From assembly GCF_003334765.1 (NCBI RefSeq), contig NZ_QOWT01000061.1: DNA of 7,246 nucleotides, one strand, 5' to 3'. Shown here piece by piece: positions 961-1,189 of the stretch; the first letter of the stretch is position 1, and each line of letters begins with the position of its first letter. The DNA comes from Escherichia coli. Lineage in GTDB: Bacteria; Pseudomonadota; Gammaproteobacteria; Enterobacterales; Enterobacteriaceae. Made by a program: the position numbers and the translations under genes. Under the pieces are notes generated by a model, which was given only the letters and a program-made list of their open reading frames with translations, was not told where the DNA came from and made no database searches.

Positions 961-1189
961 CTTTCTTTTTTATCGGAGATCCGAAAAAAGGTAGTCACGG
1001 ATCTTCCTCTCCCGCCGCACAGCGCCATCTCCCGTCAGCACAACATGTAGTGCTGAATTTGGCTGTTAATGACACTATATGTTGTGTCATCTCCCTGACC
1101 TGTGATGCGCCGCGCAGGGGCGGAAAACAGTGATATGATGATTTTCTCAGCGTGGTACACTTCCGGAAAGTTGTGATATTCATGAAAGT

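Follow-up and report, generated by a model that had tools for sequence, protein, structure and literature searches.

The window, the whole 7,246-nucleotide stretch of an Escherichia coli contig (NZ_QOWT01000061.1) analysed here, carries an operon in which ccdA and ccdB precede the recombinase gene resD (Table 1). The ccdA/ccdB region is collinear with ccdA and ccdB of plasmid F, and ccdA is annotated in NZ_CP025574, a plasmid 99.3% identical to the window. The encoded recombinase shares 95% identity with the F D protein (ResD), carries PF00589 and matches the XerD/XerC profiles over the catalytic domain only (residues ~42 to 249), bearing out the first-pass annotation, which had placed a ResD gene in the adjacent operon and read the ccdA, ccdB, resD context correctly. 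By BLASTN, window 974-1394 aligned with F nt ~45,919-46,340, which is annotated as rfsF/oriV1 upstream of ccdA. Unlike F, which has pifC to the left of rfsF, the window has vapBC and a series of 17-bp repeats there (period 34, 2.4 copies over 870-952). Among the plasmids sampled, these repeats occurred only where vapBC lies on the left and were absent from F, R64, and pSLT. Being so confined, they are no fixed component of the ResD site, and we assign them to the left flank, outside the conserved module described below.

Table 1. Features of the rfsF-ccd-resD segment, in window coordinates
Feature	Position	Strand	Description
17-bp direct repeats	819-960	+	~8 imperfect CATATG-type copies between vapB and rfsF
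rfsF core	977-1004		Left arm AGATCCGAAA (977-986), spacer AAAGGTAG (987-994), right arm TCACGGATCT (995-1004)
Conserved flanking module	1005 to ~1220	+	resD side of rfsF; labelled oriV1 in F-type annotation
IR1	1035-1056		TCAGCAC-AACATGTA-GTGCTGA; 7-bp arms
U1	1038-1050	+	GCACAACATGTAG; conserved 13-bp motif ACACAASATRTAG
Dyad centre	1060-1065		TGGCTG in the window; CAGCTG in 8 of 16 aligned plasmids
IR2	1069-1090		ATGACAC-TATATGTT-GTGTCAT; arms 1069-1075 and 1084-1090
U2	1074-1086	-	CTATATGTTGTGT, reverse complement of ACACAACATATAG; inverted copy of U1
Near-invariant block	1151-1169		CGTGGTACACTTCCGGAAA; contains palindrome TTCCGGAA
Third copy of rfsF arm core	1190-1196	+	CGGATCT; orientation of the right arm
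ccdA	1395-1613	+	ORF list; cargo gene of operon
ccdB	1615-1920	+	ORF list; cargo gene of operon
resD	1921-2730	+	Tyrosine recombinase, 269 aa, cognate to rfsF

rfsF has been described as a 28-bp site in which two 10-bp inverted repeats surround a variable 8-bp spacer, AGATCCGNAANNNNNNNNTTNCGGATCT (PMC8299605; PMC5587640), and its published pattern is AGATCCGNAA-N8-TTNCGGATCT (PMC8299605). The sole match to this pattern in the window begins at 977 and deviates at a single position, C996, giving a right arm with TCA and not TTN; position 996 is naturally T or C, and several natural sites share the C. The segment 977-1004 aligned with F nt 45,922-45,949 and with R64 nt 43,620, the coordinates at which the RepFIA homology block of F (PMC4398462) and the rfsF-to-yfcA block of R64 (PMC8004404) begin. 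Across 14 plasmids, the outer 7 bp of each arm carried 2.00 bits against 0.91 bits for the spacer, and the outer seven arm pairs were symmetric in 15 to 16 of 16 plasmids, such that the arms are invariant and the spacer variable throughout the 14 to 16 plasmids compared. The pEC958 RefSeq record, which holds PGAP coding sequences only, contained no curated rfsF or oriV-1 features. A contig scan using AGATCCG-N14-CGGATCT (14 specified bases) was discarded; it returned chance matches from unrelated phyla, none with the downstream module.

Homology between plasmids also breaks at this site, with unrelated left flanks and homologous right flanks on either side of rfsF. BLAST endpoints clustered at window positions 976-977 and 990-999, the match to pSAL4605-1 runs up to base 993, inside the rfsF spacer, with unrelated sequence beyond, and the vapBC flank of the window joins the ccd-resD module exactly at 977-1004. 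Among the 90 BLAST matches listed, H90 alone has an endpoint inside 1036-1090, its match starting at window position 1074; this plasmid is IS2-disrupted and lacks a canonical rfsF left arm. For the sites of F and pOX38, two copies of rfsF have been reported to recombine in a ResD-dependent, recA-independent manner (PMC8299605). In its geometry, its position in F and R64, the conservation of its arms relative to its spacer, its mosaic junctions, and its nearby cognate ResD, 977-1004 corresponds to rfsF. We are highly confident both in this assignment and in the exclusion of 1036-1090 as the crossover site.

It was at 1036-1090 that the first-pass annotation had placed a candidate rfsF-like resolution site, on the strength of two inverted repeats with 8-bp spacers. 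Both repeats, IR1 with CAGCAC (1036-1041) and GTGCTG (1050-1055) and IR2 as described, are present in the sequence, except that the IR1 arms extend to 7 bp (1035-1056), one base longer than claimed. Such repeats are more frequent than shuffled sequence would give: four with 7-bp arms and N8 spacers occur in the window against 0.47 expected (300 dinucleotide-preserving shuffles), two repeats with arms of at least 6 bp and an 8-bp spacer fell within 60 bp in 0.3% of shuffles, and the IR1 and IR2 hairpins as single-stranded DNA reached -11.7 kcal/mol (z = -4.3). Their conservation is the reverse of that of a core site, with conserved "spacers" and outer arm bases that are not. Arm symmetry held in 62.5% of cells for IR1 among 16 plasmids, the outer four pairs being broken in 6 to 10 of the 16, and in 81% of cells for IR2 in the 16-plasmid alignment; joint arm symmetry of the two repeats was not above shuffles (67/500). 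The IR1 spacer carried 1.64 bits against 1.50 and 0.98 bits for its arms, and the IR2 spacer 1.83 bits against 1.29 and 1.43 bits. Scanning for AGATCCGNAA with at most one mismatch matched module offsets 1 and 19 only, and no rfsF arm-like sequence was found inside 1036-1090. With neither 10-bp arms, nor conserved arms around a variable spacer, nor mosaic junctions, 1036-1090 does not belong to rfsF. The first-pass annotation thus correctly expected rfsF near ccd, in this intergenic region, but set it ~32 bp too far to the right, on repeats whose short unconserved arms, conserved spacers, and dissimilarity to the rfsF arms do not make a resolution core.

Overlooked in that annotation, IR1 and IR2 are inverted copies of one unit. 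Window 1039-1052 (CACAACATGTAGTG) and 1073-1086 (CACTATATGTTGTG) are 14 nt each, 93% complementary, and 20 nt apart. Relative to the rfsF start, U1 lies at +62 in 13 of 14 plasmids, with no more than two mismatches (mean 1.70 bits), and U2 at +99 (+98 in one) in all 14 (mean 1.77 bits). U1:U2 symmetry held in 90.5% of cells, five sequences show a compensatory switch from T:A to C:G at 1051/1074, and these symmetry and compensation values were reached in 2 to 6 of 500 shuffles. The compensatory change is probably a single evolutionary event, and it fits a hairpin and a symmetric protein site equally. From the coordinates, the central palindrome is centred at 1062.5, precisely on the U1/U2 symmetry axis, and its GCTG is nearly invariant in the alignment. 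The units are unlike the rfsF arms. Consensus scans of 14 modules for IHF, DnaA, CRP, ArgR, ArcA, LexA, and FNR found nothing conserved at U1/U2, nor any accessory-protein site (ArgR, ArcA, IHF, etc.) conserved across the modules. When 780-1420 and two homologous modules were scanned, no promoter, terminator, or Rfam hit fell at the repeats. Upstream of distant ResD homologues, inverted repeats with 11- to 15-bp arms and a 12- to 32-bp gap occurred at ~1.2 per kb, which is not clearly above the background of 0.4 to 0.6 per kb in those same loci, and this candidate was not retained.

The dyad lies within DNA that is conserved on one side of rfsF only. Using window 970-1210, the module was recovered from at least 5000 plasmid records at 71 to 100% identity, these matches making up ~7% of the plasmid collection searched, on backbones that include IncI1, IncK, IncR, and IncFIB/FII. 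It is almost free of indels, with a TTCCGGAAA block lying 183 to 184 bp from the rfsF start in 10 of 10 plasmids, and so combines the conserved one-sided DNA, fixed distance, and helical phase of accessory sequences. Of the 15 other plasmids inspected, 12 have a resD-type integrase downstream of the module, with varying cargo genes in between; the exceptions were a Raoultella plasmid (none within 3.5 kb), pB2F1 (almost unannotated), and pZ1323 (IS2 insertion). Two minus-strand ORFs (995-1183 and 1035-1160) were rejected as a conserved small coding sequence in the module; their start codon is lost in R64-type sequences.

Further sequences resembling the rfsF arms occur toward the distal end of the module. 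The near-invariant block, which averaged 1.84 bits over 1149-1169 and was invariant or nearly so in 10 to 14 plasmids, includes a resemblance to the left arm (ACTTCCG vs. AGATCCG, 5/7), and CGGATC at 1190 is invariant in all aligned plasmids. The ~18 to 20 bp between these arm-like blocks vary (1.03 bits). Together, 1159-1165 and 1190-1196 are a candidate accessory "site II" (1159-1196) at which ResD may bind.

How far the module extends among ResD relatives was gauged from homologous loci. In tblastn and protein database searches, the proteins among the matches listed all had at least 79% identity to ResD, and a search of representative sequences added relatives with 36 to 53% identity, of which eight loci were compared. 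One of these (L139), with a ResD homologue of 48% identity, retains a core-like AGATCCGCAA...GTGGATTT, but the flanking module cannot be aligned. Since it is unrecognisable in this relative, the module is confined to the clade in which ResD identity is 80% or higher.

Taken as a whole, our preferred interpretation, to which we give a probability of roughly 0.55, is that rfsF lies at 977-1004 and that the module with its dyad is a flanking arm with an accessory or regulatory role in resolution. ResD would bind the 10-bp inverted arms of rfsF, and strands would be exchanged within the 8-bp spacer. IR1 and IR2 represent not a second core but the two halves of one dyad-symmetric element, composed of U1, a CAGCTG-type centre, and U2, and held at a fixed distance from rfsF in a rigidly spaced module of ~230 bp that travels with rfsF and resD. 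As duplex DNA, the dyad may be bound by a two-fold symmetric protein, either ResD or a host factor, and 1159-1196 may act as a second, non-exchanging ResD-type site. Both elements could organise the ResD-rfsF complex, mediate the repression reported for the D protein, or do both. What the analysis establishes is where rfsF lies, how the segment is conserved, that its geometry is fixed, and that it is linked to resD. The narrower proposal that proteins bind the dyad as an accessory or regulatory element of the ResD locus is tentative and in our judgement falls slightly short of even odds. Counting against it are the lack of resemblance between U1/U2 and the rfsF arms, the absence of a match to any host-factor consensus scanned, the restriction of the module to close ResD relatives, and a compensatory change that a hairpin would explain equally well. 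As rfsF supports intermolecular fusion besides resolution (PMC8299605), it is also unlikely to act as a strict cer-like topological filter.

A more elaborate architecture, which we consider rather unlikely, would make rfsF the core of a multipartite locus of ~240 bp, as opposed to a simple lox-like site, with accessory elements bound by ResD or by host factors. These elements would be U1-CAGCTG-U2 (1038-1086) and the arm-like site at 1159-1196, whose spacer is one helical turn longer, and they might influence synapsis, directionality, or autoregulation.

Several other explanations for the repeats were weighed. That IR1 and/or IR2 are ResD core sites undergoing strand exchange, whether as rfsF proper or as an additional rfsF-like site, would suit their inverted arms around an 8-bp spacer, which is tyrosine-recombinase core geometry, their nonrandom occurrence beside resD, and the mention of "two rfsF sites" for this region (PMC4398462). 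Yet their arms are 7 bp long against 10 to 14 bp and share nothing with AGATCCGNAA, their symmetry is unconserved and their spacers conserved, the opposite of a real site, and the published rfsF maps to 977-1004. With the disrupted H90 as the only exception, no breakpoint falls in 1036-1090. This explanation is already contradicted by the comparative data and scarcely deserves credence. Assigning the repeats to oriV1, the RepC (PifC)-dependent bidirectional origin of RepFIA, either as initiator or host-factor sites or as a cruciform at the point of opening, accords with the conventional annotation of the segment between rfsF and ccdA as oriV-1 in F and pEC958 (PMC4398462), with the rigid and nearly indel-free spacing, as seen in origins, and with the ease with which the repeat arms fold as single-stranded DNA. 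However, this origin requires RepC (PMC4398462), and the window contains no pifC/repC gene, having vapBC where F has pifC. The module occurs on diverse backbones in at least 5000 plasmids, and a resD-type integrase follows it in 12 of the 15 others inspected. Consensus scans of the 14 modules revealed no conserved DnaA boxes and inspection of 1005-1210 by eye no iterons or AT-rich unwinding element, and TraDIS found the oriV-1 region of pEC958 to be dispensable (PMC4398462). On balance, we regard an origin function as unlikely.

Operators for a regulator of a promoter in the segment, such as the promoter reportedly repressed by the D protein, would explain the dyad symmetry, which is typical of operators. 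The title of Lane et al. 1986 presents the D protein as both a resolvase and a transcriptional repressor, and in pSLT, RsdB production persists when the ccd promoter is missing, pointing to a further promoter (PMC5065971). Against this, no sigma-70-like promoter was found at or beside 1036-1090 in the window, R64, or the Klebsiella version, and the repeat units are unlike the ResD arms; as the genes between the module and resD vary, ResD is the sole constant plasmid-encoded regulator. Operator function is thus quite unlikely. The functional feature might instead be a nucleic-acid structure, a 14-bp U1/U2 stem with a 20-nt loop formed in a transcript or in single-stranded DNA, as might arise in priming or conjugative transfer. 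Pairing of U1 with U2, together with the compensatory change, exceeds nearly all shuffles as given above, and the long-range helix is present in the centroid fold of 970-1215. But the primary sequence of both arms is conserved (1.70 to 1.77 bits) beyond what pairing needs, and the palindrome at the loop centre (GCTG/CAGCTG) is conserved too, a feature unable to pair within the hairpin but consistent with recognition by a two-fold symmetric protein. The region is not read through from any promoter-like site, no Rfam match was obtained, the fold of the whole module is no better than shuffles (z = -1.2), and the compensation probably reflects one event. A structural role is accordingly improbable.

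The rfsF/ResD system is a hot spot of fusion, resolution, and flank swapping in large enterobacterial plasmids, with examples among IncF, IncI1, IncR, and Klebsiella virulence plasmids (PMC8299605, PMC9412624, PMC8004404). Correct placement of the crossover at 977-1004 therefore matters for annotation and for the reading of mosaic junctions. The system itself is already known, and the inverted repeats as first described add nothing new to it. In the literature accessible to us, we found no functional assignment for the conserved dyad or the arm-like blocks of the flank; were these accessory sites, the base-exact conservation of a noncoding segment would be explained. A multipartite locus, if real, would bear on the frequency of plasmid fusion and segment exchange at rfsF; at least 5000 sequenced enterobacterial plasmids keep this architecture with its spacing exact to the base pair.

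Among known systems, the closest is rfsF/ResD (D protein) of plasmid F itself, a multimer-resolution and replicon-fusion system (PMC8299605) that is also annotated in IncI1 R64/ColIb-P9, IncR, and pSLT (rsdB) plasmids. The window shares with F a 28-bp site, AGATCCGAAA-N8-T(C/T)NCGGATCT, equally placed relative to ccdAB-resD, together with the right-hand flanking module and the recombinase. As in the literature on rfsF, the spacer varies between plasmids (AAAGGTAG in the window, ACCCCAAG in F) and the site forms a mosaic junction. The rfsF at 977-1004 also follows the plan of loxP/Cre and FRT/Flp, with 10- to 14-bp inverted arms and a 6- to 8-bp exchange spacer (PMC5587640), a plan from which IR1 and IR2 depart with arms of only 7 bp that are unconserved. 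Unlike Cre and Flp, ResD is much smaller. Like Xer/cer, Xer/psi, and Tn3-family res, the locus joins a short core to one-sided conserved DNA, here ~200 bp with rigid spacing. Its flank holds a further arm-like copy, CGGATCT at 1190, as well as an arm-like block whose spacer is longer, which is reminiscent of non-catalytic sub-sites and accessory sequences. In contrast to Xer/cer, the window module has no ArgR, ArcA, or IHF-type boxes, and unlike cer, rfsF also supports intermolecular fusion. The Tn3 resolvase is a serine recombinase, unlike the tyrosine recombinase ResD.

A possible resemblance concerns crs of pSDL2. Krause and Guiney reportedly described it in 1991 as a set of eight incomplete 17-bp direct repeats leading into a segment that is rich in inverted repeats and homologous to F oriV1, all of it upstream of rsd. 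The layout of the window may correspond to this, with ~8 17-bp repeats at 819-960, then rfsF, IR1/IR2, and an operon ending in resD; its segment 977-1090 is rich in inverted repeats and homologous to F.

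By gene content, the window is a plasmid maintenance region. Genes were called from ORFs in the window, PGAP names taken from close matches, and alignment with F.

Predicted genes and other features of the window
Feature	Coordinates	Strand	Basis or remark
vapC	146-574	minus	ORF; PGAP name of close matches
vapB	571-801	minus	ORF; PGAP name of close matches
Intergenic region	802-1394		593 bp
ccdA	1395-1613		ORF; alignment with F
ccdB	1615-1920		ORF; alignment with F
resD, tyrosine recombinase gene	1921-2730		ORF; alignment with F
Partition genes, ParA-like and ParM-like	within window
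umuC-like ORF, truncated	5410-6171	minus
IS3-family transposase fragments, two	6604-7041 and 7025-7243	minus	reach window end

The umuC-like ORF is apparently truncated at the N-terminal end and meets unrelated sequence near 6170-6240; together with the IS3-family fragments (5410-7246), this suggests insertion or deletion scars. The recombinase contains a Phage_integrase domain, and its residues ~42-249 are the sole stretch matching XerD/XerC profiles (profile positions ~94-283, catalytic domain). The N-terminal core-binding domain usual in Xer- and Cre-type recombinases appears to be missing.

The first-pass annotation had proposed an rfsF-like resolution site at 1036-1090. Region and system were correctly identified, the recombinase being 95% identical to ResD (D protein of F) and rfsF lying in the same intergenic region, but sequence comparison points to 977-1004 as the crossover site. 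rfsF measures 28 bp: conserved 10-bp inverted repeats lie on either side of a variable 8-bp spacer, the presumed place of exchange (search pattern AGATCCGNAANNNNNNNNTTNCGGATCT; PMC8299605), and the same geometry is given in PMC5587640. The sole match to this pattern in the window, AGATCCGAAA-AAAGGTAG-TCACGGATCT, aligns with the F site AGATCCGAAA-ACCCCAAG-TTACGGATCT at nt 45,922, where the RepFIA homology block begins (PMC4398462). An identical site in R64 starts at nt 43,620, as does the rfsF-to-yfcA block of that plasmid (PMC8004404). The one mismatch to the published pattern, C996, falls where natural sites show T or C.

Homology breakpoints are evidence that natural exchange probably occurs at 977-1004, not at 1036-1090. 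Megablast with 800-1400 as query found 4193 plasmids, and most of the 30 rows sampled for endpoints begin or end at 976-977 or 990-995. A more sensitive search with 970-1210, returning at least 5000 plasmids at 71 to 100% identity, agreed, with endpoint clusters at 973-977 and 990-999. Left of rfsF, 200 bp are unrelated between plasmid groups (in F and R64 the pifC side, in the window vapB with repeats, elsewhere other DNA), while homology on the right extends to every group. In pSAL4605-1 (NZ_AP023314.1, locus 3001-3210), the match to the window runs from vapB across the left arm into the spacer, to base 993, followed by a degenerate right arm (CCGGATTT) and unrelated DNA, with neither the conserved right flank nor resD nearby; this is a natural hybrid junction inside the 8-bp spacer. 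In CP042949.1 (~2480-2510) and NZ_CP148283.1 (~1853-1880), the left arm is lost or degenerate (GAGTCCTGATAGTTACGGATCT and AGAATCGAAAAAGTATGTTACGGATCT) and the right flank is present, interrupted in the latter by an IS2 insertion directly after TTCCGGAAAA. A pyrimidine-rich tract directly left of rfsF (961-976, or the equivalent 20 bp elsewhere; e.g., CTTTCTTTTTTATCGG, CTTCTTATTTCTCCGG, TTCCTCTCTTCCTCTCCCG) is shared by otherwise unrelated flanks and might extend the site as a weakly conserved part of it.

Reading of the window sequence confirmed that the two inverted repeats reported at 1036-1090 exist. The first (IR1) extends to 7-bp arms, TCAGCAC/GTGCTGA, at 1035-1056; the second (IR2) spans 1069-1090. 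Repeats with 7-bp arms and 8-bp spacers number four in the window against 0.47 expected from shuffles, and a pair (arms of at least 6 bp, 8-bp spacer) no more than 60 bp apart occurred in 0.3% of shuffles; the observation is therefore real and non-random. The other two lie at 2850-2871 and 3372-3393, one being GTAATAA-N8-TTATTAC across the stop codon of a convergent minus-strand ORF (2868-3143) downstream of resD, the other within the parA-like gene.

As recombinase core sites, however, IR1 and IR2 were contradicted by each testable criterion. Across 14 to 16 aligned plasmids of varied backbones (F, R64, IncK, IncFIB, pO157, pSLT, and Klebsiella, Raoultella, and Enterobacter plasmids), the outer 7 bp of each rfsF arm carried 2.00 bits and the spacer 0.91 bits, and such conserved arms around a free spacer are the signature expected of a recombinase core. 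Conservation was reversed in IR1 (arms 1.50 and 0.98 bits, spacer 1.64 bits) and IR2 (arms 1.29 and 1.43 bits, spacer 1.83 bits). Arm symmetry held in 62.5% of cells for IR1 and 81% for IR2, jointly no better than shuffled controls (67/500). Among the matches listed, only one, the IS2-disrupted pZ1323 without a canonical rfsF left arm, starts inside 1036-1090 (at 1074).

Instead, IR1 and IR2 each form one half of a single dyad element within the cis-acting flank that belongs to the ResD locus. Segments 1039-1052 (CACAACATGTAGTG) and 1073-1086 (CACTATATGTTGTG) form a 14-nt inverted pair (93%, 20 nt apart) that is symmetric in 90.5% of cells; in five sequences T:A at 1051/1074 has become C:G, a compensatory change, and only 2 to 6 of 500 shuffles attain these values. 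A conserved motif, ACACAASATRTAG, recurs at +62 (forward) and +99 (reverse) from the first rfsF base in essentially all plasmids examined, and a GCTG/CAGCTG palindrome marks the dyad centre.

The dyad lies within a nearly indel-free module of ~230 bp (1005 to ~1220). Two parts of it are invariant: the block CGTGGTACACTTCCGGAAA (1151-1169), within which TTCCGGAAA lies 183 to 184 bp from the rfsF start in 10/10 plasmids first compared, and a third arm-core copy, CGGATCT (1190-1196). The ~18 to 20 bp between CGGATCT and the arm-like ACTTCCG (1159-1165), which shares 5/7 bases with the rfsF arm AGATCCG, are variable (1.03 bits), and 1151-1196 thus looks like a candidate second ResD-type site whose spacer is one helical turn longer than that of rfsF. 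GATC (Dam) sites occur in each rfsF arm and the third copy (979-982, 1000-1003, 1192-1195), so that ResD binding could in principle depend on how far these are methylated after replication. The module precedes an operon with a ResD-type integrase as last or penultimate gene in 12 of 15 other plasmids inspected, with ccdAB or assorted hypothetical proteins in between. The exceptions were a Raoultella plasmid with no integrase within 3.5 kb, the almost unannotated pB2F1, and pZ1323 with its IS2 insertion. No module was recognisable in relatives whose ResD homologue is 45 to 53% identical, hence the comparative signal comes from one clade (ResD identity at least 80%). In one Logan contig (SRR1959293), where the F-type module was likewise not recognisable, an operon with a 48%-identical ResD homologue at its end is preceded by a diverged core-like site at 1412-1440, AGATCCGCAA...GTGGATTT.

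The stretch is traditionally labelled oriV1, and might accordingly be a replication origin. However, RepC, which oriV1 is said to need (PMC4398462), is absent from the window, a consensus scan found no conserved DnaA boxes in the module, and the module is kept beside resD in many non-F replicons. A hairpin or cruciform would fit the compensatory change and how well the repeats fold locally, yet explains neither why the arms are so strongly conserved in primary sequence nor why a palindrome is kept at the loop centre. We infer instead that the module serves ResD as accessory or regulatory DNA, which could assemble a ResD complex or, alternatively, mediate the transcriptional repression to which Lane et al. 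1986 refer in their title. The dyad units are unlike ResD arms and matched no host-factor consensus tried, and scans of the region found neither promoter-like sites nor known RNA families at the repeats. rfsF supports fusion besides resolution (PMC8299605), which makes a strict topological filter of the cer type unlikely. The rfsF/ResD system itself is already known.

Between vapB and rfsF lie approximately eight imperfect 17-bp direct repeats (819-960) rich in CATATG/TAGATGC, for which TRF gave period 34 and 2.4 copies at 870-952. They were absent from F, R64, and pSLT and found only in plasmids with vapBC on the left flank (FIB_D6, Kp_SWHIN, and pSAL4605-1). Two candidate identities are a vapBC operator and the 17-bp repeats of crs of pSDL2; crs reportedly comprises eight such repeats and then a segment rich in inverted repeats and homologous to F oriV1, a layout that the window matches.
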